Of a stretch of 33,823 nt of DNA, positions 2,157-29,000 are shown in pieces. The translations under genes were made by a program, and so were the position numbers. Below the pieces are notes generated by a model. That model was not told where the DNA came from. It did no database searches and was given only the letters and a program-made list of their open reading frames with translations. The stretch is from a virus (taxonomy: Duplodnaviria; Heunggongvirae; Uroviricota; Caudoviricetes), in IMG/VR virus record IMGVR_UViG_2877251553_000003, one strand, 5' to 3'. How positions within the stretch are numbered: the first letter of the stretch is position 1; each line of letters begins with the position of its first letter.

Positions 2157-2360
2157 TGAAGTGGCACACTGAATTTGGCCACCTGAACAGAGGTGATATG
2201 CTCACCTCAGAACAACACAGGTGCTCCAATGAAAAAAAGAAATTTTAGCGCAGAGTTTAAACGCGAATCCGCTCAACTGGTTGTTGACCAGAAATACACG
2301 GTGGCGGTGATGCTGCCAACTTACTGATTTAGTGTATGATGGTGTTTTTGAGGTGCTCCA

Positions 2361-2636
2361 GTGGCTTCTGTTTCTATCAGCTGTCCCTCCTGTTCAGCTA
2401 CTGACGGGGTGGTGCGTAACGGCAAAAGCACTGCCGGACATCAGCGCTATCTCTGCTCTCACTGCCGTAAAACATGGCAACTGCAGTTCACTTACACCGC
2501 TTCTCAACCCGGTACGCACCAGAAAATTATTGATATGGCCATGAATGGCGTTGGATGCCGGGCAACTGCACGCATTATGGGCGTTAGCCTCAACACGATT
2601 TTACGTCACTTAAAAAACTCAGGCCGCAGTCGGTAA
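2361..2636 (+). CDS. insA: IS1 InsA
   Basis: 91-aa [25 protein letters not shown]... with the zinc-finger-like CxxC...CxxC. Confidence 0.9.
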
Positions 2637-2680
2637 CCTCGCGCATACAGCCGGGCAGTGACGTCATCGTCTGCGCGGAA

Positions 2681-4174
<1,494 letters not shown>

Positions 4175-4182
4175 CCACTTCA

Positions 4183-4822
4183 CGCCAGAGTTTTATTTGA
4201 GATCGCAAACAGGGAGGTGGCTTATTACAACATAAGGCAGGAGTTTAATTACTCAACTGAAATTACTGATTTCATGAAAGCGGTATATTTCCTGTATCTC
4301 AATCGTCACGGTTACCGTGGTTTATGTCGCTATAACAAGAGCGGGCATTTCAACATTCCCTACGGCAATTATAAAAATCCGTATTTCCCTGAAAAAGAAA
4401 TTCGCGCATTTGCAGAAAAAGCCCAGCGAGCAACGTTTATCTGCGCCAGCTTTGATGAAACGCTGGCGATGTTGAAGGCGGGGGATGTGGTGTATTGCGA
4501 TCCACCGTATGACGGTACGTTTTCCGGCTATCACACTGATGGTTTCACTGAAGATGACCAGTATCACCTAGCATCCGTTCTTGAACATCGGTCATCAGAA
4601 GGACATCCGGTCATTGTTTCTAACAGTGACACATCCCTGATCCGTTCGCTGTATTGCAATTTTACTCACCACTATATCAAGGTAAAACGCAGCATCGGTG
4701 TGGCAGCTGGCGAGGGTAAATCAGCAACAGAAATCATTGCTGTTTCCGGGCCGCGCTGCTGGGTGGGATTTGATTATTCGCGTGGCGTGGATAGTTCTGC
4801 CGTGTACGGAGTACGTGCATGA
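4183..4822 (+). pseudogene. dam: Dam-family N6-adenine DNA methyltransferase, 5'-truncated at the IS911 right end
   Basis: Translation from the IS boundary aligns with E. coli Dam from about residue 60 onward ([23 protein letters not shown] motif IV); the N-terminal part is missing. Confidence 0.75.
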
Positions 4823-4927
4823 GCCATGCCGATATGAACAACTGCTGCGGCTTTAACGAGGCTGCCGCAGCGTTCTCATGGAACAGCCCGAAAAAGGCCA
4901 TTAACCCTTATCTGGACCCGGCGGAAG

Positions 4928-6278
4928 TTGCGCCGCGAGGCACTGAGTGATCAGGTCTGGGAGCGTTATTTTTTTTATGAATCACGTGATCCTGTCCAGC
5001 ACGAAATGGAGCAGGATAAGCTCATTAGCCGGGCAAAGCTGGCGCATGAGCAGCAGCGTTTTAATCCGGATATGGTCATTCTGGCGGACGTCAACGCCCA
5101 GCCTTCCCATATCAGCAAGCCGCTGATGCAACGTATTGAATACTTCAGCAGCCTGGGCAGGCCAAAGGCTTATTCCCGCTATTTACGTGAGACGATTAAG
5201 CCATGTCTGGAACGACTGGAGCATGTACGCGACAGCCAGCTATCTGCATCTTTTCGTTTTATGGCAAGCCATGTAGGGCTGGACGGCCTGCTGATTCTGC
5301 CTGAAATGAGTCAGGATCAGGTGAAACGCCTGTCTACCCTTGTCGCTGCGCATATGAGCATGTGCCTTGATGCAGCTTGTGGTGATTTGTATGCCACCGA
5401 TGACGTTAAGCCAGAAGAAATCCGCAAGACATGGGAAAAGGTGGCAGCGGAAACCCTGCGTCTGGATGTCATCCCGCCTGCGTTTGAGCAACTCCGTCGG
5501 AAAAGAAACCGCCGTAAACCCGTGCCCTATGAACTCATTCCGGGTTCGCTGGCGCGTATGTTGTGCGCCGACTGGTGGTACCGGAAATTATGGAAAATGC
5601 GTTGCGAATGGCGGGAAGAGCAGTTGCGTGCTGTCTGCCTGGTCAGCAAAAAAGCATCTCCCTATGTCAGCTATGAAGCCGTGATGCATAAACGTGAGCA
5701 GCGCCGCAAGTCATTGGAGTTTTTCCGTTCTCATGAACTGGTGAACGAAGAGGGCGACACGCTGGATATGGAAGACGTGGTAAACGCCAGCAGCAGCAAC
5801 CCGGCGCACCGCCGCAATGAGATGATGGCCTGTGTTAAAGGTCTGGAGCTTATCGCGGAAATGCGCGGTGACTGCGCCGTTTTCTACACCATTACCTGTC
5901 CGTCACGTTTCCATTCCACGCTCAATAACGGCAGACCAAACCCAACCTGGACAAATGCGACGGTAAGACAAAGCAGCGATTATCTGGTCGGCATGTTTGC
6001 TGCATTTCGTAAGGCGATGCACAAAGCCGGGTTGCGCTGGTATGGCGTGCGGGTGGCTGAGCCGCATCATGACGGTACAGTTCACTGGCACCTGTTGTGT
6101 TTTATGCGCAAAAAAGACCGCCGCGCCATTACTGCATTGTTGCGTAAGTTTGCCATCCGTGAAGACCGCGAGGAACTGGGTAATAACACTGGTCCACGCT
6201 TTAAATATGAGCTGATAAACCCGCGCAAAGGAACGCCGACAAGCTACATCGCGAAATACATCAGTAAGAACATTGACG
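4928..6278 (+). pseudogene. A: P2 A / 186 A-type rolling-circle replication initiator, 5' portion, interrupted by the IS66-family element
   Basis: HUH-type motif (VHWHLLCF) and the YIAKYISK tyrosine pair just before the insertion point; start uncertain (TTG at 4928; an ATG ORF at 4819-4950 in another frame could be the true N-terminus). Confidence 0.8.
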
Positions 6279-6349
6279 GTAAGCGTACAGCCTGAACCGT
6301 CTGGTCAGAATCTGACGAATTAGACAAAGTGGTGTCCACCAAATAAGTA

Positions 6350-6750
6350 GTGGGAACCAAAGTGTCAGATATGCAGAAAAATGTGAATCCCGGCAGGCGA
6401 AAAGGCTGCCCTAATTATCCTCCCGAATTTAAACAGCAGCTCGTTGCTGCCTCCTGTGAACCCGGGATATCCATCTCAAAACTTGCTCTTGAAAATGGCA
6501 TTAACGCCAATCTGTTGTTCAAATGGCGACAACAATGGCGCGAGGGAAAGCTGCTATTACCTTCTTCAGAGAGCCCCAGCTACTTCCTGTGACTCTCGAT
6601 GCAGCTGCCGAACAGCCAGAATCGCTCGCAGAGGATCCGGAAACCCTCAGTATCAGCTGTGAGGTAACGTTCCGGCACGGGACGCTCCGCTTCAATGGCA
6701 ATGTCAGCGAAAAGCTCCTGACTCTGCTGATACAGGAACTGAAGCGATGA
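6350..6750 (+). CDS. tnpA: IS66-family TnpA (orf1); frame break in a C-run near 6574-6577
   Basis: Two overlapping track ORFs (6350-6592, 6523-6750) read as one protein if one C is added; start uncertain (GTG 6350 or ATG 6371). Confidence 0.7.
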
Positions 6751-7094
6751 TCCCGTTACCTTCCGGGACCAAAATTTGGCTGGTTGCCGGTATCACCGAT
6801 ATGAGAAATGGCTTCAACGGCCTGGCGGCAAAGGTGCAGACGACGCTGAAAGACGCTCCGATGTCAGGTCACGTTTTTATCTTCCGTGGGCGTAATGGCA
6901 GTCAGGTAAAGCTCCTCTGGTCTACCGGCGATGGACTGTGTCTGCTGACCAAACGGCTGGAGCGCGGCCGCTTCGCCTGGCCGTCAGCCCGGGATGGCAA
7001 AGTGTTCCTCACACCGGCACAGCTGGCGATGCTCCTTGAAGGTATCGACTGGCGGCAGCCTAAAAGACTGCTTACGTCCCTGACTATGTTGTAA
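6747..7094 (+). CDS. tnpB: IS66-family TnpB (orf2)
   Basis: 115-aa ORF MIPLPSGTKIWLVAGITDMRNGFNGLA... overlapping the tnpA stop (ATGA). Confidence 0.8.
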   Translation: MIPLPSGTKIWLVAGITDMRNGFNGLAAKVQTTLKDAPMSGHVFIFRGRNGSQVKLLWSTGDGLCLLTKRLERGRFAWPSARDGKVFLTPAQLAMLLEGIDWRQPKRLLTSLTML

Positions 7095-7142
7095 GCCTCT
7101 TTATCCTGGTCGACGCTGAATGAGCCTGGTAATATACCCGGT

Positions 7143-8680
7143 ATGAGCAGCTCACTTCCTGACGATATCAATGCACTGAAACGTCTCCTTGCCGAACAGG
7201 AGGCGCTGAACCGTGCCCTGCTGGAAAAGCTGAACGAGCGTGAACGCGAAATAGACCATCTGCAGGCACAGCTGGATAAGCTGCGCCGGATGAACTTCGG
7301 CAGCCGCTCCGAAAAAGTCTCCCGTCGTATCGCACAGATGGAAGCTGACCTGAAGGCACTTCAGAAAGAAAGTGATACCCTTACCGGTCGGGTTGACGAC
7401 CCGGCCGTGCAGCGCCCGCTGCGTCAAACCCGCACCCGCAAACCGTTCCCCGAATCACTCCCCCGCGATGAAAAACGGCTGCTGCCGGCAGCGTCATGCT
7501 GCCCGGAATGTGGAGGCTCACTGAGCTATCCGGGTGAGGATGCCGCCGAACAGCTGGAGTTGATGCGCAGCGTCTTCCGGGTTATCCGGACTGTACGTGA
7601 AAAGCATGCCTGTACTCAGTGCGATGCCATCGTGCAGGCCCCGCGCCTTCACGGCCCATCGAGCGGGGTATCGCAGGACCGGGGCTGCTGGCCCGCGTGC
7701 TGATCTCAAAGTATGCAGAGCACACCCCGCTGTACCGCCAGTCTGAAATGTACGGCCGCCAGGGCGTGGAGCTGAGTCGTTCACTGCTGTCGGGCTGGGT
7801 GGATGCATGCTGCCGGCTACTGTCACCGCTGGAAGAAGCGCTTCAGGACTATGTGCTGACTGACGGTAAGCTCCATGCTGATGACACGCCTGTCCCGGTG
7901 CTGTTGCCAGGCAATAAGAAAACGAAGACCGGGCGGTTATGGACCTACGTTCGTGACGACCGTAACGCCGGGTCAACGCTGGCGCCGGCGGTGTGGTTCG
8001 CTTACAGCCCGGACAGAAAAGGCATCCATCCGCAGACCCATCTTGCGGGGTTCAGTGGTGTACTGCAGGCGGATGCATACGCCGGGTTCAACGAGCTGTA
8101 CCGGGATGGCCGGATAACGGAAGCCGCCTGTTGGGCTCACGCCCGCCGTAAAATCCACGATGTGCACGTTCGCACCCCGTCAGCCCTGACGGAGGAAGCG
8201 CTGAAACGGATCGGCGAACTGTACGCCATCGAGGCAGAGATAAGGGGAATGACGGCGGAGCAGCGCCTTGCCGAACGTCAGTTGAAAACGAAACCGCTGC
8301 TGAAATCCCTGGAAAGCTGGCTGCGTGAAAAGATGAAAACCCTGTCGCGACACTCAGAACTGGCGAAAGCGTTCGCATACGCCCTGAACCAGTGGCCGGC
8401 GCTGACGTACTATGCAGATGATGGCTGGGCTGAGGCGGACAATAATATCGCTGAAAATGCGTTGCGGATGGTCAGTCTGGGCCGCAAAAACTACCTGTTC
8501 TTCGGTTCGGATCATGGAGGAGAGCGGGGAGCGCTGCTGTACAGCCTGATCGGGACGTGCAAACTGAACGGAGTGGAGCCAGAAAGCTACCTCCGCTATG
8601 TACTTGACGTCATAGCCGACTGGCCGATAAACCGGGTCGGCGAACTGCTCCCCTGGCGCGTAGCACTGCCGACTGAATAA
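7143..8680 (+). CDS. tnpC: IS66-family transposase TnpC (orf3); frame break near 7638-7647
   Basis: Track ORFs 7143-7703 and 7619-8680 join into one ~510-aa protein (leucine-zipper N-terminus, CxxC...CxxC, DDE region) with a single-base correction. Confidence 0.75.
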
Positions 8681-8725
8681 CACATCCCCGTCAATACGGT
8701 TCTTGCTGCACGCTTACCATTGACG

Positions 8726-9615
8726 GGCGTGGTCTGGCTGGCGAGATCAGCAAGGAAACGGGTAAATCCCTGCGTGATAACGCTGAATACGTTAATCCCT
8801 GGGCGTCTCTGCATCGTGTTCAGCAATTCCGCTTCTTTGGTATTCCAGGGCGTCAGGCTTACCGTGAACTGCGGTTGTTGGCTGGTCAGGCGGCAAGGCA
8901 GCAGGGTGACAAAAAAGCAGGTGCGCCGGTACTGGATAACCCGCGCCTTGATGCCATCCTGGCTGCTGCTGATGCTGGCTGTTTTGCCACCTACATTATG
9001 AGGCAGGGCGGCGTGCTGGTTCCTCGCAAATATCACTTGATCAGAACCGCTTATGAAATCAATGAAGAGCCGACCGCCTATGGCGATCACGGTATTCGTA
9101 TTTATGGCATCTGGTCACCCATTGCAGAAGGCAAGATCTGCACTCATGCAGTGAAGTGGAAAATGGTTCGTAAAGCCGTTGACGTTCAGGAGGCGGCAGC
9201 CGACCAGGGCGCTTGCGCCCCTTGGACTCGTGGCAATAACTGTCCCCTTGCTGAAAATTTGAACCAACAGGAGAAAGATAAATCAGCTGATGGGAACCCC
9301 AGAACGGACATTACCAGCATGGATGACAAGGAGTTGCACGATTACCTGCACAGTATGAGCAAAAAAGAGCGCCGGGAACTGGCAGCAAGGTTACGCCTGG
9401 TGAAACCGAAACGGCGTAAAGACTACAAACAGCGAATTACAGACCATCAGCGACTGCAGCTCGTGTATGAGCTGAAGTCCAGAGGATTTGATGGCAGCGA
9501 GAAAGAGGTCGATTTACTCCTTCGCGGAGGCAGTATTCCGTCAGGAGCAGGCCTGCGTATCTTCTATCGGAACCAGCGTTTGCAGGAAGATGATCAGTGG
9601 CGGAACCTGTATTAA
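8726..9615 (+). pseudogene. A: Replication initiator A, 3' portion (resumes in frame after the IS66 element and duplication)
   Basis: Removing 6279-8725 restores ...KNIDG|[21 protein letters not shown]... in one frame; stop at 9613-9615. Confidence 0.8.
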
Positions 9616-10493: not shown

Positions 10494-12142
10494 ATGTTAG
10501 TCAAGAAAAATAAAAATTATAGTTTATATTTTTTAATTACAAATAATCAACAGATATCTGATTCTGGTAATTATATAAAAATAGTCCCATCAAGAAGCGA
10601 TTGGAATGATTTTGGATATTTGAGTAGAGTCGAAATATCTATTTTTAATAAAAAAGAGTGTAAGGATATAATTTCACTGAATGGTTATATTGGTTTTTTG
10701 AATTCAGAGGAGGAACGAAATGGAAAAGCAGAACTGATAAGGCGAGTGAAAAAAAAGGAAGAATCTAATTTAAAGGATGAGGGGTTTAATGATTATTTTG
10801 TCATGCTTCAGGATATGAATAATTATCGAAGACTAGTAAGATTTTTTGGGGTGAATGAATCCAAATATATATTAAATTTCATTAATGATGTTGTTTCTAA
10901 GAAAAGTGACGCTAGTGCAGAGAATTTGAGGAAAAAAGCAATCTCTTCTGATATCTTTAATAAATCTTTCATTAGAGAGTCTGAGTCGTATTTTACTTTC
11001 AAAAATGCAGGAACAGTTCTTTCCGGTATTCAATATGAGGAGTTGGGTAATTTATCACAGCACATCAAGATTAGCTATTCGAATAAAGTTAATGAAGAAG
11101 ATGTATCTTATGTTTTTAATTTTGATCACGAGCATGATTTACCAAAAAGAATTTCCATAATTATAGGCGAGAATGGTGTAGGAAAAAGCCAAACGCTTAG
11201 AGAAATCGCATTGGCTGCGATTAAAGGAAAGGATAATTTGGTGGCTGTAGTTGATTCTAACGGTGTGAGCATTGAAGAACGAATTCAAATTAGTAGGCTC
11301 ATTGCTTTTTCTCCAACAAATGAAAGTAAGTGTTCATTTCCAACCGATAAAAGAATAAAATCATTGATATGGTACAAAAGATTGACTTTAAATCGTGAAT
11401 CAAAATCCAAATTAAACTTGAATGATTTAATAGTGCAACTAGCGAGGAGTAACGACGCTATCGGCTATAATCAAAGGTGGAATATATTTGTTGATGCACT
11501 GAGTGTTCTAAATAGTAACAACGATTTAGTAATCAAATGTGGCGGTGAAAATTCACCATTTGTTAAATTAAATGAGCTTAATTCTCGAGGCGAAGAATCT
11601 AGACTATCATTATATTCTGAAATTATTCTCTCTGGCGAGCCTTTGAGGCTTATTGAAAATAAATGTTACCCTTTGAGTAGTGGGAAATATCGTTTATTAA
11701 GTTTTGTGTACAAGTTTGTTTGTATATTGAGAATGGGACTCTTCTATTAATAGATGAGCCAGAAACACATCTCCATCCTTCATTTATTAATAAATTTATG
11801 GCATTGCTTGATAATTTATTAGAAAAGACAGGCTCTTCAGCTATCATAGCAACGCATTCGGTTTATCTTGTTCGGGAGGTTTTTAAGGAGCAAGTGACAA
11901 TACTCAGAAGACGAGATGATGGGGTAATTGTTAGCGAAAAACCGAGATTGAGTACTTTTGGGGCGAATATAGGAAATATCTCATATTTTGTTTTCGGTGA
12001 GAGTGAACCAACTCAAATTTTAAATAAAGTAAAAAACAATATAATTGCAAAGAATATGTCTTGGGATGATGTTGAATCTAAATATAGCGAGGACTTATCA
12101 CTTAATGTATTAACTGCGTTGAGAAATGAAATGGGCAATTGA
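10494..12142 (+). CDS. ABC-type (AAA_15/AAA_21-like) ATPase of a candidate defence module, with a ~200-aa N-terminal extension; one frame break near 11715-11722
   Basis: Walker A IIGENGVGKSQ (about aa 213), LSSG signature, Walker B LLLIDEPE, H-loop ATHS; track ORFs 10494-11750 and 11720-12142 join if one T is restored in gtttgtttg; strong RBS GAGAGGG; very AT-rich. Confidence 0.8.
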
Positions 12143-12143
12143 A

Positions 12144-13007
12144 ATGAATAAATTAAAAAGACCTGTTTTTAAAGATTATTCTGCATTTAAAAAACTATCT
12201 GCAAATAAGAGATTAAAACATCATTCTGTTCTGAATGGACAGGATACATTTATACTTAATGCATATAGATCGTACATAAAGAATAAAGGGTATCTTAATG
12301 TCAATTCTTGTGGCGTATTGAGTAACAATATTGCTGAAGCTTTGAGATATTATTATAACAATCCCGCAAAGTGTTTATCTATAATTGATGATATAAGAGC
12401 AGCTAATTCTAACTCTCTATGTCCAATGTGTGGTTCAATGCATAGCGGGACTTTGGATCATGTTTTACCCAAGGAAAACTATCCAGAATTTTCTTTATTC
12501 ACTAAGAATTTGGTTCCTGCTTGCAAATGTAATACTTTCAAAAGTACTACTATAGCTAATTCTGCAGGCCATCGGATGCTGCATCCATATTTTGATAATA
12601 TATTAAAACAAAGATTAATATGTGCTAATTTTTCTAAATTAGGGCGAACACCTACAATTGATGTAAAAATCATAATTGACCCAATGTCACCAGAATATAA
12701 CAATGTTAAGTATCATCTTGATAATGTTGTTATCAAGAATAATATTAAGGGGTATTTGTCTGAACAATGGGAGTCGTTTTACTTATATCCTGAGCTTGTT
12801 ATTAGAGGACTGAATAAGAGTCTTTCTACTTATAGCGATGTATATGAGTTGTTGACTCGCGAGTTGTTGCTGTTGGATGAAAAACATAAAGGTAAAAATA
12901 ATTGGAATTCGGTTTTTGTAGCTGGGTTAATTCGACCTGATGTGATTAGGTGGATACTCTGTGAATTACATTTAGGTAACAGAAGTCCAGACGGTCGTCT
13001 CATATGA
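12144..13007 (+). CDS. HNH-family endonuclease, partner of the upstream ATPase
   Basis: CPMCGS...LDHVLPKENYP...NLVPACKCN fits the HNH pattern (CxxC, DH, N, CxC); starts right after the ATPase stop (alternative overlapping ATG at 12126). Confidence 0.75.
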   Translation: MNKLKRPVFKDYSAFKKLSANKRLKHHSVLNGQDTFILNAYRSYIKNKGYLNVNSCGVLSNNIAEALRYYYNNPAKCLSIIDDIRAANSNSLCPMCGSMHSGTLDHVLPKENYPEFSLFTKNLVPACKCNTFKSTTIANSAGHRMLHPYFDNILKQRLICANFSKLGRTPTIDVKIIIDPMSPEYNNVKYHLDNVVIKNNIKGYLSEQWESFYLYPELVIRGLNKSLSTYSDVYELLTRELLLLDEKHKGKNNWNSVFVAGLIRPDVIRWILCELHLGNRSPDGRLI

Positions 13008-18615: not shown

Positions 18616-18710
18616 CAGAACGTGCCCCCGCGCACGGGCGGCACGGGGTGGCGAAAGGCACAGCCACATCAAAACCCCGTCCACCGCCCTTTATTTCAGG
18701 AGAAAGCAGC

Positions 18711-19157
18711 ATGAAGTTTGTTGCGCCAGAACAGGCACCGGAACAGGCGGAAATCATTAGAAATACGCCGTTCTGGCCTGATGTGGACCTGTCGGAGTTT
18801 CGCAGTGTCATGCGCACTGACGGCACGGTGACGCAGCCGCGTTTAAAGTAGGTTGCACTGTCGGCAATTTCGGAGGTTAACGCAGAGCTGTATGAATTTC
18901 GCAGACGCCAGCAGATGCTGGGGTATGCGTCGGAACAGCTGGACGGGAAAAGTGAGCGCATTCAGCACTATTTCAACGCGGTTTACTGCTGGGCTCGCGC
19001 CATGCTCAACGAACGTTTCCAGGACTATGACGCCACGGCATCCGGTGCGAAGCGGGGCGAAGAACTGGCGGAAGCAAGCGGTGATTTGTGGCGTGACGCC
19101 CGCTGGGCCATCAGCCGGGTGCAGGACGCGCCGCACTGCACAGTGGAGCTTATCTGA
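18711..19157 (+). pseudogene. L: gpL head completion protein with an in-frame TAG at 18849-18851
   Basis: MKFVAPEQ... and ...NAELYEFRRRQ...CTVELI lie in the same frame either side of the TAG; RBS GGAGAAAG before the ATG. Confidence 0.75.
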
Positions 19158-21009: not shown

Positions 21010-21403
21010 AGCAGTGCCTTATGTCCGTAATAACCCGGACAAACTGCATCTGTTTGTGGATAACGGTTCGCTGGTTGCCTCCGGGGCTAGCTCCATGTCA
21101 TGGGAGTACCGCTACACCCTGAACGTGGTGATTGAAGATTTCAGCGGCGACCAGAATCTGCTGATGGCCCCGGTTTTGCTGTGGCTGCGGGATAACCAGC
21201 CCGATGCGATCAATAACCCGGCGTTACGGGAAAAGCTATTCACCTTTGAGGTGGATATTCTGCGCAACGATGTCTGTGATATCAGCCTTAACCTGCAACT
21301 GACGGAGCGTGTGCTGGTCAGCACTGACGGCAGTGTGTCGAACGTTGAAGCGGTAGCGGAACCTGATGAACCTGAAGAAATGTGGACGGTGAAACGTGGC
21401 TGA
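20972..21403 (+). CDS. R: gpR tail completion protein
   Basis: Similarity to P2 gpR (FVDNGS, RYTLNVV, WLRDNQPD); GTG start at 20972 preferred over TTG at 20951. Confidence 0.75.
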   Translation: MNKPQSLRHALNKAVPYVRNNPDKLHLFVDNGSLVASGASSMSWEYRYTLNVVIEDFSGDQNLLMAPVLLWLRDNQPDAINNPALREKLFTFEVDILRNDVCDISLNLQLTERVLVSTDGSVSNVEAVAEPDEPEEMWTVKRG

Positions 21404-21792
21404 ATTGCAGAAGGTGGACGACTGGCTGAGTGCATTATTGGCGAATCTGGAGCCAGCCGCAAGAAGCCGCATGATGCGCCAGCTGGCGCAGGAACTGCGC
21501 CGGACACAGCAGCAGAATATCAGGATGCAGCGCAATCCAGATGGCAGCAGTTATGAGCCGCGCAGGGTAACAGCACGCAGCAAAAAGGGGCGCATCAAAC
21601 GTCAGATGTTTACAAAGCTGCGCACCACAAAATACCTGAAAACTGCAGCCAGCGCCGATTCTGCCAGCGTACAGTTTGAAGGTAGGGTGCAGCGCATTGC
21701 CCGTATTCACCATTACGGCTTGAGTGATCGCGTCAGTCGAAAAGGTATTTATACCATCTATGCGAAAAGGCAGTTATTAGGTTTTAATGTCC
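21396..21792 (+). pseudogene. S: gpS tail completion protein, 3'-truncated by IS1 copy 2
   Basis: PAARSRMMRQLA...QQQNIRMQRNPDGS matches P2 gpS; the ORF stop is created inside the IS1 end. Confidence 0.75.
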
Positions 21793-21847
21793 GGTAATGC
21801 TGCCAACTTACTGATTTAGTGTATGATGGTGATTTTAAGGTGCTTGC

Positions 21848-22123
21848 GTGGCTTCCATTTCCATCAGATGTCCTTCCTGCTCCGCTATTGAAGGCGTGGT
21901 GCGTAACGGCAAAAGAACTGCCGGACATCAGCGCTATCTCTGCTCTCATTGCCGTAAAACATGGCAACTACAGTTCACTTACACCGCCTCTCAGCCCGGT
22001 ACGCACCAGAAAATCATTGATATGGCCATGAATGGCGTCGGATGTCGCGCCAGTGCACGCATTATGGGCGTTGGCCTCAACACGGTTTTACGTCACTTAA
22101 AAAACTCAGGCCGCAGTCGGTAA
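21848..22123 (+). CDS. insA: IS1 InsA
   Basis: 91 aa, 8 substitutions relative to the copy-1 InsA. Confidence 0.9.
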
Positions 22124-22167
22124 CCTCGCGCATACAACCGGGCAGTGATGTGATTGTCTGCGCTGAA

Positions 22168-22545
22168 ATGGACGAACAGTGGGGCTACGTCGGTGCTAAA
22201 TCACGTCAGCGCTGGCTGTTTTACGCGTATGACAGGATACGGAGGACGGTTGTGGCGCACGTCTTCGGTGAACGCACTCTGGCCACACTGGAGCGTCTTC
22301 TGAGCCTGCTGTCGGCCTTTGAGGTCGTGGTATGGATGACGGATGGCTGGCCGCTGTATGAATCACGCCTGAAGGGAAAGCTGCACGTTATCAGCAAGCG
22401 TTACACTCAGCGCATTGAGCGACATAATCTGAATCTGAGACAACATCTGGCAAGGCTGGGACGGAAGTCACTGTCGTTCTCAAAATCGGTGGAGCTGCAT
22501 GACAAGGTCATCGGGCATTATCTGAACATAAAACACTATCAGTAA
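22168..22545 (+). CDS. insB: IS1 InsB
   Basis: [16 protein letters not shown]... in the same position within the element as in copy 1. Confidence 0.85.
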
Positions 22546-22560
22546 GTTGGCAGCATTACC

Positions 22561-23038
22561 ATGCAGCCCTCACAATATAGTTAAAAGCGACATTTCGTGG
22601 GCGTGTTTCATTCGCACCTGCAGGTTTAGTCGTTGCCGCAACAACACCACCCTCTGTAATAGCCGGGTTGGGAATTGGGTAATTATCGAAGTCAATGGCC
22701 GGAGACAGGGGCGTGATTTGTTTTAAAATCGTGGTGCCTGTAAAACTTTCCAGAGTCTGGTCGTTAGTTCGTGAAGTCCAGATTCCCCAATAGTGGTTAT
22801 GACTGACAATCGCACCGTCCTGAAGCGTTAATAATCCCCTTCCGTTATCCACTCCACGTCCGTCATCCCAGCCACGAATAAACTCACCGCGTAAATCAGG
22901 CAATTTATTTGTCGGGTAAGCCTTTGCCAGTTCCGGGTATTCTTCAGCAGAAAAAGCCGCACCATTGCATTTCAGCCAGCCTGTCGGCGGAGTGGCTGAA
23001 GGCCACGGAACAGGCACACCAACAGGTAATGCAGAGCC
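22561..23038 (-). pseudogene. Tail-fibre C-terminal variable domain (alternative, inverted copy) with no attached constant region
   Basis: PWPSATPPTGWLKCNGAAFSAEEYPELAKAYP...ETRPRNVAFNYIVRAA is the conserved tail-fibre C-terminal pattern (P2 H / Mu S type); begins at the crossover site and abuts IS1. Confidence 0.65.
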
Positions 23039-23064
23039 TTCTCCCAAACCAACGTTTAAGAAAA
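23039..23064. other. Gin/Hin/Cin/Pin-type 26-bp recombination crossover site
   Basis: TTCTCCCAAACC-AA-CGTTTAAGAAAA fits the half-site pattern (TTnTCnnAAACC / GGTTTnnGAnAA) next to the invertase gene. Confidence 0.5.
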
Positions 23065-23119
23065 TGCAGAGATAATGGCTAACTGGCATCATCCCCGGTT
23101 TTTATTCAGGGGATTGATC

Positions 23120-23685
23120 ATGCTTATTGGCTATGTACGCGTGTCAACAAATGACCAGAACACCGATTTGCAACGTAATGCACTGAACTGCGCGGGATGT
23201 GAGCGGATTTTTGAGGATAAAATCAGTGGCACTAAGCCCGACAGACCGGGGCTTAAAAAACTGCTCAGGACACTATCGGCAGGAGACACGCTGGTTGTCT
23301 GGAAGCTGGACAGACTGGGACGCAGTATGCGGCATCTTGTTACGCTGATAGAAGAGTTGCGCCAGCGTGGTGTGAATTTCCGAAGCCTGACTGACAGTAT
23401 TGATACCAGTACCCCAATGGGCCGTTTCTTTTTTCACGTCATGGGGCTCTGGCTGAAATGGAACGTGAACTGATAGTTGAACGTACCAGAGCAGGGCTGG
23501 CTGCAGCTCGTGCCAAAGGCAGAGTAGGTGGACTCCGTCCTAAGTTGACCACCGAACAGTGGGCACAGATTGGACGTTTACTCGAGGCCGGAGAATCAAG
23601 ACAGCGTATTGCACTGATTTTTGATGTGGGCGTTTCTACCATTTATAGAAAATTTCCGGCGAATGAGAGCAATGAATCGCCCTGA
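23120..23685 (+). CDS. pin: Pin/Gin/Hin-family serine DNA invertase; frame break in a G-run near 23444-23447
   Basis: MLIGYVRVSTNDQNTDLQRNAL...VVWKLDRLGRS...FFFHVMG|ALAEMERELIVERT... nearly identical in pattern to E. coli Pin as recalled. Confidence 0.85.
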
Positions 23686-23733
23686 GTCAGTATTATTTTG
23701 ATTTTTCCTGTAAGCGGACAAATACCGTCATTT

Positions 23734-23751
23734 TGTGTGAATAACGACACA
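23734..23751. promoter_or_regulatory. TGT-N12-ACA late promoter box upstream of FI
   Basis: TGTgtgaataacgacACA about 80 bp upstream of the FI ATG. Confidence 0.5.
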
Positions 23752-23827
23752 ACTGCGCTTAGCTGTTTGTCAGGCACAATCACTTCAACATAGGGCGAAG
23801 CCTAATCCAATCAGGAGGTTCGCCACT

Positions 23828-25000
23828 ATGGCTCAGGATTACCACCACGGGGTGCGCGTTGTTGAAGTCAACGAAGGCACCCGATCCATTACCACGGTGA
23901 GCACCGCCATCGTGGGTATGGTCTGCACGGGCGATGATGCCGATGCAAAAATGTTTCCTCTTAATAAACCTGTGCTGATCACTGATGTGCTGACCGCCAG
24001 CGGTAAAGCGGGTGAGTCTGGCACGCTGGCCCGTTCGCTGGATGCCATCGCTGACCAGGCAAAACCCGTGACCGTTGTTGTGCGTGTGCCGCAGGGTGAA
24101 ACGGAAGAAGAAACCACAACCAATATCATTGGCGCAGTGACCGCCGAGGGTAAAAAAACAGGTATGAAAGCCCTGTTATCTGCCCAGTCACAGCTCGGCG
24201 TTAAACCGCGCATTCTCGGCGTGCCAGGTCACGACACGAAGGCGGTAGCTACTGAGTTGCTGAGCGTGGCGCAAAGCCTGCGTGGATTTGCTTACCTGTC
24301 AGCGTATGGTTGCAAGACGGTGCAGGAAGCAATCACTTACCGTGAAAACTTCAGTCAGCGTGAAGGAATGCTGATCTGGCCCGACTTTACTGGCTGGGAC
24401 ACGGTGCTGAATGCCGAAGCAACGGCTTATGCCACCGCCCGTGCGCTCGGTCTGCGCGCTAAAATTGATGAGCAGACCGGATGGCACAAAAGCCTGTCCA
24501 ACGTGGGCGTGAACGGTGTCACCGGAATTTCTGCTGATGTGTTCTGGGATCTGCAGAACCCGGCAACCGATGCAGGTCTGCTTAACCAGAACGATATCAC
24601 CACGCTTATCCGCAAAGACGGTTTCCGCTTCTGGGGTTCCCGCTGTCTGAGCGATGATCCGCTCTTTGCCTTCGAAAACTACACCCGCACGGCGCAGGTG
24701 CTGATGGACACGATGGCAGAAGCGCACATGTGGGCGGTGGACAAACCGCTGAACCCGTCGCTGGCCCGCGACATTATCGAAGGTATCCGCGCCAAAATGC
24801 GTAGCCTGGTCAGTCAGGGCTATCTCATTGGTGGTGATTGCTGGCTGGACGAGTCGGTGAACGATAAAGACACGCTGAAAGCCGGGAAACTCACCATCGA
24901 TTACGACTACACGCCAGTGCCGCCACTTGAAAACCTGATGCTGCGTCAGCGCATCACCGATCAGTACCTGGTGAATTTCTCCAGCCAGGTCAGCGCGTAA
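23828..25000 (+). CDS. FI: gpFI tail sheath protein
   Basis: 390-aa ORF, P2 FI-like; RBS AGGAGG. Confidence 0.9.
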
Positions 25001-25009
25001 GGGGACAAC

Positions 25010-25524
25010 ATGGCTTTACCACGCAAATTAAAACACCTGAACCTGTTTAACGACGGGAACAACTGGCAGGGGATCGTTGAGTCGCTGACGCTGCCGAAAT
25101 TCACCCGCAAATATGAGAAGTATCGCGGCGGCGGTATGCCCGGAGCGGTGGATGTGGATCTGGGACTGGATGACAGTGCACTGGATACAGAATTTTCCAT
25201 TGGTGGTACTGAACTGCTGCTGTTTAAGCAGATGGGCAAAGCCACGGTGGATGGCATCCAGCTGCGCTTTACCGGCTCTATTCAGCGTGATGATACCGGG
25301 AAGTGCAGGCCGTGGAGCTTGTGGTGCGTGGACGTCACAAAGAAGTAGATTCCGGCGAGTGGAAGACGGGCGAAAGCAACACTACCAAAGTGACCAGTAC
25401 CAACAGCTACGCGAAGCTGACCATCAATGGTGAGGTGCTCTATGAAGTGGACCTGATCAACATGGTGGAAATTGTGGACGGTGTGGACCTGATGGAAGCG
25501 CACCGCAACGCCCTCGGCCTCTGA
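25010..25524 (+). CDS. FII: gpFII tail tube protein; frame break near 25298-25300
   Basis: Track ORFs 25010-25348 and 25303-25524 join as ...QRDDTGEVQAVELVVRGRHKEV... with one added G. Confidence 0.85.
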
Positions 25525-26006: not shown

Positions 26007-29000
26007 ATGAGTGACAATAACCTGCGTCTGCAGGTGATTCTTAATGCGGTTGACAAACTCACCCGCCCATTTCGATCCGCGCAGGCCAGTTCAAGAGAAC
26101 TGGCTGCTGCTGTCAAAAAATCCCGCGATGCAATAAAGCAGCTTGATCAGGCCGGGAGCAGTCTGGACAGCTTCCGAAAGCTGCAGGCAGAAAATCAGAA
26201 ATTAGGCGACAGGCTGAACTATGCCCGCCAGCGTGCAAATTTGCTCAGTCAGGAACTGGGAGCGATGGGGCCGCCTTCGCAACGTCAGGTTGTTGCTCTG
26301 GGCCGTCAACGGCTGGCTGTTCAGCGCCTGGAAGAACGCCAGAAAAAGCTGCAGCAGCAGACGGCGCTTGTGCGTGCAGAACTTTATCGTGCTGGTATTT
26401 CAGCTAATGATGGCGCCAGTGCGACGGCCCGCATTACCCGTGAAACGATGCGTTATAACAGGCAGCTTTCTGAGCAGGAAGCGAGGTTACGACGTGTCGG
26501 GGAGCAACAGCGAAAAATGCACGCCGCCCGGGGGCTTACGCCAGGCGTCTTGAGGTAAGGGATCGTATTGCAGGTGCCGGAGCCACCACCACGGCTGCAG
26601 GGCTGGCAATGGGCGCACCAGTGATGGCGGCAGTAAAAAGCTATACCAGCATGGAAGATGCCATGAAAGGTGTGGCAAAGCAGGTCAATGGTCTGCGTGA
26701 CGATAATGGCAACCGCACTGCGCGTTTTTACGAAATGCAGGGTGCCATCAAGGCTGCCAGCGAACAGTTGCCGATGGAAAACGGTGCTGTGGACTTCGCC
26801 GCACTGGTTGAAGGTGGTGCGCGCATGAACGTCGCAAACCCTGACGACAGCTGGGAAGACCAGAAACGTGACCTGCTGGCCTTCGCCAGCACGGCGGCAA
26901 AGGCGGCAACAGCCTTTGAACTGCCAGCGGATGAACTGTCAGAAAGTCTGGGGAAAATCGCCCAGCTCTACAAAATCCCTACCCGCAATATTGAGCAGCT
27001 CGGTGATGCGCTGAACTATCTGGATGATAACGCCATGTCGAAAGGGGCGGACATCATTGATGTCATGCAACGCCTGGGCGGTGTGGCTGACCGTCTGGAT
27101 TATCGTAAAGCGGCGGCGCTGGGTTCCACCTTCCTGACACTCGGCGCTGCGCCTGAGGTTGCAGCCAGTGCAGCAAACGCGATGGTGCGTGAATTGTCCA
27201 TTGCCACCATGCAAAGCAAGAGTTTCTTTGAAGGGATGAATCTGCTGAAACTCAATCCAGAAGTGATTGAAAAGCAGATGACGAAGGATGCGATGGGAAC
27301 TATCCAGCGGGTGCTGGAGAAGGTGAATGCGCTGCCACAGGATAAGCGCCTGTCTGCCATGACCATGTTGTTTGGTAAAGAGTTTGGCGATGACGCAGCG
27401 AAACTGGCAAACAACCTGCCGGAACTTCAGCGCCAGTTAAAACTGACTGCGGGCAATGATGCGCTCGGTTCCATGCAGAAAGAATCCGACATCAACAAGG
27501 ATTCACTTTCTGCTCAGTGGTTGCTGGTCAAAACCGGAGCACAGAACACCTTCAGCAGCCTGGGGGAAACGCTGCGCCAGCCGCTGATGGATATTCTGTA
27601 CACGGTGAAAAGCGTCACGGGGGCGTTGCGTCGCTGGGTGGAAGCTAACCCGGAACTGACGGGCACTCTGATGAAAGTAGCCGCTGTGGTAGCTGCCGTT
27701 ACCGTGGGCCTCGGCACCTTAGAGGTGGCGCTGGCTGCAGTGCTGGGGCCGCTGGCAGTCATCCGTCTGGGATTCTCTGTGCTGGGTATCAAAACGTTAC
27801 CTTCCGTTACGGCAGCAGTAACCCGAACCAGCAACGCGTTGTCCTGGCTGGCTGGCGCACCACTGGCACTGCTGCGACGCGGGCTTGCTTCATCGGGCAA
27901 CGCTGCAGGTTTACTTACTGCGCCGTTGTCGTCTTTGCGCCGCACGGCATCACTGACGGGAAATGTCCTGAAAACTGTAGCAGGTGCGCCGGTTGCACTT
28001 TTGCGGGTCTGGATTATCCGGTTTACGTGCGGTTGCTGTGATGTTTATGAATCCACTGGCGGTACTACGCGGCGGACTGGCTGCCACAGGCACGGTGCTG
28101 CGTATGCTCGCATCCGGTCCACTGGCGATGCTGCGCGTTGCCCTGTATGCCGTCTCTGGTCTGTTAGGTGCTCTGCTCAGTCTGATAGGTCTTGTGGTTA
28201 CTGCACTGGCGGGTGTGGCGCTGGTTGTCTGGAAATACTGGCAGCCCATCACCACATTTCTCGGTGGCGTGGTGGAAGGATTCAAAGCGGCGGCAGGTCC
28301 TGTCAGTGCCGCGTTCGAACCGCTTAAGCCTGTGTTCCAGTGGATTGGCGACAAAGTACAGGCGCTGTGGGGCTGGTTTACTGATCTGCTGACGCCCGTT
28401 AAGTCGACCTCTGCCGAACTGCAGAGTGCAGCGGCAATGGGGCGACGATTCGGGAGGCTCTGGCGGAAGGGCTGAATATGGTCATGCATCCGCTGGACTC
28501 CCTGAAATCCGGCGTTTCCTGGTTGCTGGAGAAACTTGGCATTGTCAGTAAAGAGGCCGCAAAGGCGAAACTGCCGGAAAGCGTGACGCGTCAGCAACCT
28601 GCGACGGTGAATGCAGACGGTAAAGTGATGATGCCATCGGGTGGTTTTCCGTCATGGGGATATGGCTTTGCGGGGATGTATGACAGCGGCGGGTATATCC
28701 CGCGCGGGCAGTTTGGCATCGTCGGTGAAAACGGGCCGGAAATTGTTAACGGCCCGGCAAATGTGACCAGCCGGAGAAATACAGCTGCACTGGCTGCCGT
28801 TGTTGCCGGAATGATGGGTGTTGCTGCTACGCCAGCAGAGCTTCCACCGTTGCACCCTTTGGCACTTCCCGCGAAAGGCGGTGAAGCGATGGTGAGTCGT
28901 GCAGCCACTGTGCCGCCCGTTCAACGGATTGAGGCACCGATGCAGATCATCATTCAAACGCAGCCAGGACAAAGTGCGCAGGATATTGCGCGGGAGGTGG

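Follow-up and report, generated by a model that had tools for sequence, protein, structure and literature searches.

Comparative sequence evidence for an IS1-truncated remnant of an invertible tail-fibre switch in a P2-like prophage of Shigella dysenteriae

Comparison with intact relatives supports the identification of the locus described here, which lies in a 33,823-nucleotide stretch of prophage DNA (the window), as the right-hand end of an invertible fibre segment of the e14/P1/Mu type inside a P2-like prophage. The full account, in which an ancestral switch of the e14 type was reduced by an IS1-associated deletion to a dead remnant in Shigella dysenteriae, is very probably correct. The anatomy of the locus, the deletion junction, the absence of a partner crossover site and the activity of the intact homologue in a relative can be read directly from the sequences. 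Between 20500 and 24500 the order is gene S, IS1, a minus-strand fibre ORF, a 26-mer, a 55-bp spacer, an invertase gene and the sheath gene FI, with the following features.

21396-21792, plus strand: P2 gene S (virion morphogenesis/tail completion), lacking about 17-23 codons at its 3' end; it forms the left border of the deletion.
21793-22560, plus strand: complete IS1 of 768 bp at the deletion junction, with perfect 23-bp terminal inverted repeats and the InsA and IS1 transposase domains.
22561-23051, minus strand: Sv', the variable C-terminal half of a tail fibre, complete from the crossover point through its final codon, within the ORF 22556-23092.
23039-23064: 26-bp invertase crossover site, the invertase-proximal ("right") one, TTCTCCCAAACCAACGTTTAAGAAAA, with the central dinucleotide AA at 23051-23052.
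23120-23685, plus strand: gene for a serine DNA invertase of the Pin/Cin/Gin type, assigned by Pfam and by DNA and protein alignments; as written, two ORFs of 117 and 75 amino acids.
23138-23209: putative equivalent of the recombinational (Fis) enhancer of P1 cin.
23443-23446, plus strand: run of four G, five in all relatives, that breaks the invertase frame.
23533-23535, plus strand: invertase codon 139, CTC (Leu) here and CGC (Arg) in relatives, equivalent to Hin Arg140 and gamma-delta resolvase Arg142.
From 23828: P2 sheath gene FI, to the right of the invertase.

A preliminary description of this DNA had recognized a Pin-like serine invertase, a 26-bp site fitting the gix/hix/cix half-site pattern and, beside it, an oppositely oriented tail-fibre C-terminal domain, and had read them as the right-hand end of an invertible fibre segment in a P2-like prophage. 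Its coordinates for the site, the invertase and the fibre part are all exact, and each of these identifications is borne out by the comparisons that follow.

The setting is that of a defective P2-like (Peduoviridae) prophage. The late-gene order O-N-M-L-X-holin-lysozyme-LysABC-R-S ... FI-FII-E-T-U-D-ogr is present, as judged from Pfam annotation of identical loci and from colinearity with annotated E. coli prophages, and P2 head, tail and lysis genes recognized by Pfam surround the locus. The prophage adjoins ybjL, as its counterpart does in E. coli ATCC 8739. Across the 12.4 kb that were compared, the window is 100% identical to the genome sequence CP026825.1.

Elsewhere the prophage is riddled with IS elements. 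The early region (3335-8680) is broken up by an IS3-family transposase (3335-4174) and an IS66-family transposase (7143-8680), between which lie a fragment of a Dam-type methylase (4217-4822) and a seemingly shortened replication gene A (4928-6295). A second full-length IS1 at 2306-3073, in the same orientation as the copy at 21793-22560 and 90.5% identical to it, is bordered by a perfect 9-bp target duplication, CACGGTGGC, and thus represents a simple insertion into the prophage early region. The region upstream of the head genes, which in P2-like phages accommodates accessory genes such as old and tin, contains at 10494-13007 the candidate defence pair PDC-M01, as reported by PADLOC; the gene for component A, whose product is an ATPase related to proteins of the PtuA/Old type, is broken into ORFs at 10494-11750 and 11720-12142, and component B occupies 12126-13007. 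The head-completion gene L (18648-19157; 3316-3762 in the Shigella loci) is divided into ORFs of 46 and 80 amino acids in every Shigella locus examined, and around 18923-18931, within this gene, the window lacks 18 nt relative to the prophage of E. coli Z226-7. On this comparison the split of gene L is a genuine, lineage-wide lesion.

The 26-mer was evaluated against reference sites taken from annotated records of e14 in MG1655, phage Mu and phage P1 (cixL and cixR, with annotated crossover points), and a half-site weight matrix was built from six sites of these three elements. The sequence at 23039-23064 scores 28.6 bits, compared with 27.8-31.7 bits for the known sites, 9.7 bits for the next best position in the window and a background over the window with a mean of -27 and a standard deviation of 8.5. 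It is also the sole match in the window to the generic half-site pattern TTN5AAACCNNGGTTTN5AA when up to two mismatches are allowed, where 0.13 matches would be expected. Of its 26 positions, the site shares 25 with the pinE-proximal site of e14, 19 with P1 cixL and 17 with Mu gixR; E. coli Z226-7 has the identical sequence, and ATCC 8739, like e14, departs from it at a single position. The distance from the site to the ATG of the invertase gene is 55 bp in the window and 54 bp in both e14 and Mu.

A partner crossover site was sought throughout the 33.8-kb window by mismatch search, half-site pattern and weight matrix, and none was found. The sequence TTCTCCCAAACCAACGTTTAAGAAAA is unique in the window even when up to three mismatches are tolerated, and none of 100 shuffled sequences gave a match. 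Candidates such as 9563-9588 and 21207-21232 reach 5.6 to 9.7 bits, where the site itself has 28.6 bits, and were set aside as chance matches; the candidate at 9563-9588 has, in addition, the central dinucleotide AG rather than AA.

The gene to the right of the site encodes a catalytic domain of the PF00239 (Resolvase) family (E 1.5e-40) and, in the second of the two ORFs, a C-terminal HTH_7 domain (PF02796, E 2.3e-14) that was aligned to the Hin DNA-binding domain sequence of 1HCR. The nucleophilic Ser9 is retained within its YVRVST motif, and the stretch MLIGYVRVSTNDQ is the same in PinE and Gin. As an intact protein the invertase shows 84% identity with PinE, 77% with Cin and 73% with Gin, and as a query it matches the sequences of Gin crystal structures with an E value of 2.5e-91, compared with 5e-33 for gamma-delta resolvase. 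Residues specific to Fis-dependent invertases have been described in helix B (Lys47, Lys/Arg48 and Lys/Arg51) and in the DNA-binding domain (Gln151, Arg154 and Leu155), in Hin numbering (PMC3798978). Hin numbering equals that of the window invertase plus 1, and by alignment the corresponding residues K46, K47, R50, Q150, R153 and L154 are present. The helix-B and Fis-contact residues, together with 73-84% identity to characterized invertases, place the recombinase by sequence in the invertase subclass and not among the resolvases.

The regulatory surroundings of the gene are less distinctive. The P1 record places the enhancer at nucleotides 19-90 of cin, and the equivalent stretch shows 56 of 72 matching positions in the window, 57 of 72 for e14 and 55 of 72 for Mu, a level of conservation that coding constraint could explain. 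Putative Fis-like 15-mers occur at nucleotides 22-36 and 71-85 of the invertase gene, within the coding sequence; because the whole stretch is coding, its enhancer-like conservation does not constitute independent evidence. The promoters of invertases are weak, and a simple promoter scan upstream of the gene revealed no convincing sigma-70 promoter and nothing above chance.

To the left of the site, the minus-strand ORF 22556-23092 contains a phage tail collar domain (PF07484, E 9e-16). It is nearly identical to, colinear with and of the same length as the 177-amino-acid Sv' of E. coli ATCC 8739. All 177 codons are kept: IS1 adjoins the first base (22561) of the original stop codon and adds one Trp codon and a TAA, so that the stand-alone ORF now comprises 178 amino acids. 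The fragment has neither a promoter nor the constant N-terminal part of a fibre.

The complete layout to which these pieces belong is preserved in the prophages of ATCC 8739 and Z226-7, where the order is S, a cargo gene in some cases, V, W, J, I, H and tfa, followed by an inverted tfaE and Sv' (annotated as "phage tail protein", 177-180 amino acids), the recombinase and the sheath gene. The cargo gene of the ATCC 8739 prophage, annotated as "P-loop ATPase, Sll1717 family", lies between S and V (2526-4037 of that locus) and is absent from Z226-7. In these relatives the inverted 26-bp sites are separated by 1831-1845 nt between the arms, and the partner lies inside H. When the segment of ATCC 8739 was inverted in silico, H became fused in phase to the Sv' frame (...LTYLGLGE/GSALPVG...; ...LTYLGLGE/GSALPVGVPVPWPS...), and a second ATCC 8739 assembly, NZ_CP033020.1, contains this inverted junction with 100% identity across 700 nt, NC_010468.1 having the other orientation. 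The orientation difference between the two assemblies covers a 1.87-kb fibre segment (7624-9504 of the ATCC 8739 locus). Since both orientations are found in assemblies of ATCC 8739, the intact homologue is a live switch. Inversion has also been demonstrated experimentally in P2-like prophages (EPEC) and in e14 (PMC4272514).

Homology of the window to these intact relatives stops at IS1, with the nucleotide alignment ending at 21745 on the left and resuming at 22561 on the right. Gene S is recognizable by PF05069 (E 3.4e-36, profile positions 2-132 of 148) and by a tblastn match to residues 1-131 of the 148 in Z226-7 S; its frame runs into IS1 and stops after two IS1-encoded codons. A simple insertion of IS1 gives a 9-bp target duplication. 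The IS1 at 21793-22560 has no target-site duplication, its flanks being TTAATGTCC and ATGCAGCCC, and it therefore marks a deletion or recombination junction. The missing stretch amounts to about 5 kb on the layout of Z226-7 and about 6.6 kb on that of ATCC 8739 with its extra cargo gene, and it comprised the 3' end of S together with V, W, J, I, H (which contained the partner site), tfa and tfaE. In tblastn searches V, W, J, I, H, tfa and tfaE had no match anywhere in the window.

The same junction was located in many NCBI assemblies by exact look-up of the two IS1-fusion proteins. The fusion of S to IS1 is recorded on 267 contigs and that of Sv' to IS1 on 46, under the names Shigella dysenteriae or multispecies Shigella. 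A collection of species-representative genomes contained no exact match to the IS1/Sv' junction, and among complete E. coli genomes none covered at least 80% of 21300-24000 in one place and none was seen with the junction.

Based on these comparisons, a simple model would start from a prophage with a switch of the e14 type, comprising a fibre gene H with an internal 26-bp site, a chaperone gene, an inverted chaperone gene and Sv', a second site and the invertase. The ancestral invertase would have flipped the segment of about 1.87 kb and thereby joined one or the other fibre end in phase to the constant portion of H. A deletion associated with IS1, either an adjacent deletion by one IS1 or recombination between two IS1 copies, would then have taken away, in the Shigella lineage, the end of S together with V, W, J, I, H (and its partner site) and both chaperone genes, leaving Sv', a single crossover site and the invertase gene. 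Afterwards the invertase would have acquired the substitution Arg139Leu; this order of the two events, deletion and then substitution, is the one that we infer.

The preliminary description had concluded that the partner site and the other fibre variant were gone and that the switch was consequently locked. The losses are evident from the searches above, with only Sv' left of the segment and an IS1-associated deletion as the cause, and inversion is indeed impossible. The word locked nevertheless understates the damage, since the constant part of the fibre and the whole baseplate have gone with the partner and there is no fibre gene to switch. With a single site and no constant fibre part, neither inversion nor fibre expression is possible, and the switch is dead rather than merely locked.

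Two features of the invertase gene had escaped the preliminary description. One is the break at 23443-23446, where one G is missing from a run of five and the gene is consequently divided into ORFs of 117 and 75 amino acids. In most Shigella assemblies that carry the IS1 junction, the 188-amino-acid ORF is intact; the 117-amino-acid fragment is recorded on 1 contig and the intact Shigella allele on 201. Relative to the 99.6% identical prophage of Z226-7, all eight indels of the window fall in G/C homopolymers, and seven of them are contractions. Relative to AKNG01000051.1, the window has four G/C-homopolymer contractions and no substitution over 12.4 kb, and each of the sister CP0268xx assemblies has private homopolymer contractions of its own.

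Further single-base G/C-homopolymer indels, at 25297, 25745, 26529, 28005, 28452, 29065 and 30130, disrupt the genes for the tube, the tail assembly chaperone, the tape measure and D. The indels at 25297 and 25745 occur in this assembly alone. AKNG01000051.1, otherwise identical, lacks the one at 26529, which is nevertheless present in three sister CP0268xx assemblies; these three indels have the look of consensus errors. Because the drafts AKNG01000051.1 and UYIT01000009.1 share the frameshift at 28005 in the tape-measure gene, that one is probably real.

The other, Arg139Leu, changes GGRRPK to GGLRPK and is the sole amino-acid difference between the Shigella allele and a widespread R139 allele found on more than 1000 contigs. 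Arginine occupies position 139 in every invertase aligned (PinE, Gin, Cin and those of ATCC 8739 and Z226-7), and the residue aligns with Arg142 of gamma-delta resolvase and, via the 1HCR offset, with Arg140 of Hin. In the structures of Hin with hixL and of resolvase with DNA, this arginine sits in the minor groove, and it is needed for binding. Leucine is present in all loci with the IS1 junction that were examined, and the allele is named from Shigella only. The substitution would probably weaken or abolish binding to the site and so cripple the enzyme, and it would fit relaxed selection following the loss of the substrate.

Other readings of these data have to be weighed. Taken at face value, the four G at 23443-23446 would make the invertase a true two-ORF pseudogene in this strain, and the prophage is plainly decaying, with gene L split in all loci and multiple IS insertions; the tape-measure frameshift common to other draft assemblies indicates that genuine homopolymer decay occurs in it. 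However, the invertase frameshift appears in one assembly only, and homopolymer contractions with no substitution against AKNG01000051.1, along with private contractions in the sister series, are the signature of uncorrected long-read errors. A genuine frameshift is unlikely, although it retains some weight, and a consensus or assembly error in the long-read genome CP026825.1, a call that is based on the comparison of assemblies rather than of reads, is the most likely explanation. A more radical objection would treat the 26-mer as a chance likeness and the recombinase as a resolvase or transposon-type enzyme unrelated to fibre switching, given that the Pfam names Resolvase and HTH_7 are also used for resolvases. 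This is exceedingly improbable in view of the separation of the site's score from that of the next best position, its near identity to the e14 site, a distance to the start codon like that of e14 and Mu, and the far closer match of the protein to invertases than to gamma-delta resolvase; moreover, the site falls in the fibre reading frame exactly where the relatives recombine.

The invertase could instead be a working orphan, its gene intact and its L139 form active enough to invert Pin-type segments elsewhere in trans, and be kept for a host function. The ORF is preserved in most junction-bearing Shigella assemblies and still encodes the catalytic Ser9 motif together with the Fis-contact residues peculiar to invertases, and action in trans by invertases of cryptic prophages is documented: PinQ of Qin inverts the P segment of e14 (PMC12529663), and Fin of the P2-like prophage Fels-2 acts on hix (Kutsukake 2006, as cited in PMC4272514). 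Against this, the residue lost through Arg139Leu is an arginine conserved without exception in PinE, Gin, Cin and close relatives, the counterpart by alignment of the minor-groove Arg142, and a sole difference from a widespread allele, confined by name to Shigella, resembles the outcome of relaxed selection. Retention within a clonal lineage is no evidence of function, and the 33.8-kb window yielded no target segment. S. dysenteriae reportedly carries pinD on a defective Mu (Tominaga). On balance, a working orphan is distinctly improbable. A broader variant would have the remnant still active, either through the L139 invertase acting in trans or through expression of the 178-amino-acid Sv' beside IS1, which could benefit the host, for example by blocking phage adsorption. 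The analogy is with e14, in which inversion of the P segment produces a chimeric StfE2 that blocks phage adsorption, and with PinQ, which can give phage defence (PMC12529663). Were this so, such a function would explain the retention of the module in hundreds of Shigella genomes. Residual function is conceivable but unlikely given Arg139Leu and the lack of an identified target, and this particular proposal has very little probability. The reading preferred here remains that of a dead switch whose invertase is itself probably impaired by Arg139Leu.

More generally, the locus offers a worked example of how the expansion of IS1 in Shigella dismantles prophages, a single junction having cost this one the baseplate and the fibre gene along with half of a phase-variation switch. 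It may likewise illustrate a recombinase that begins to decay after the loss of its substrate, through one substitution at a DNA-contacting arginine. For annotation it carries a warning, in that the seeming invertase pseudogene is probably a G/C-homopolymer consensus error, as are several frameshifts nearby. It is important to note that the system itself is already known, namely the Pin/Fin-type invertible fibre module of P2-like prophages, here truncated by IS1 in the course of ordinary decay, and that neither a new mechanism nor a new family is involved. A literature search found no paper specifically describing this P2-like remnant in Shigella.

The closest known system, as the preliminary description had anticipated in pointing to pinE-stfE, is the P segment of e14 in E. 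coli K-12 (stfP/tfaP, tfaE/stfE and pinE). The two share 83.6% DNA identity over 736 nt, an interval that extends from the start of the fibre end across the site and the spacer and takes in most of the invertase gene, and the same geometry of a site followed by a spacer of 54-55 bp and the ATG; at the levels given above, 25 of 26 positions of the site and 84% of PinE agree. StfE of e14 and Sv' of the window have their first approximately 80 and last 16 residues in common and differ in the receptor-binding middle, and a gene annotated tfaE also occurs in the intact P2-like relatives. Whereas e14, a remnant of lambdoid type, retains both sites and inverts (PMC4272514, PMC12529663), the element in the window is P2-like and keeps only the invertase-proximal site and one fibre end.

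The switches of other P2-like prophages (ATCC 8739, Z226-7, EPEC E2348/69 and fin of Fels-2) occupy the same place between H and FI and have invertases of the same cluster; the window invertase is 99% identical to the Z226-7 allele and 97.9% identical to the annotated invertase of Klebsiella phage KP12. Unlike the intact switches of this group, the copy in the window lacks the baseplate genes, the fibre gene, the partner site and both chaperone genes, and it has Arg139Leu. The G segment of Mu with gin and the C segment of P1 with cin follow the same logic, in which a constant fibre part is joined to one of two inverted ends through 26-bp sites and an enhancer lies within the recombinase gene; these segments are larger (about 3 kb and 4.2 kb, respectively), reside in other phage backbones, and are intact and functional.
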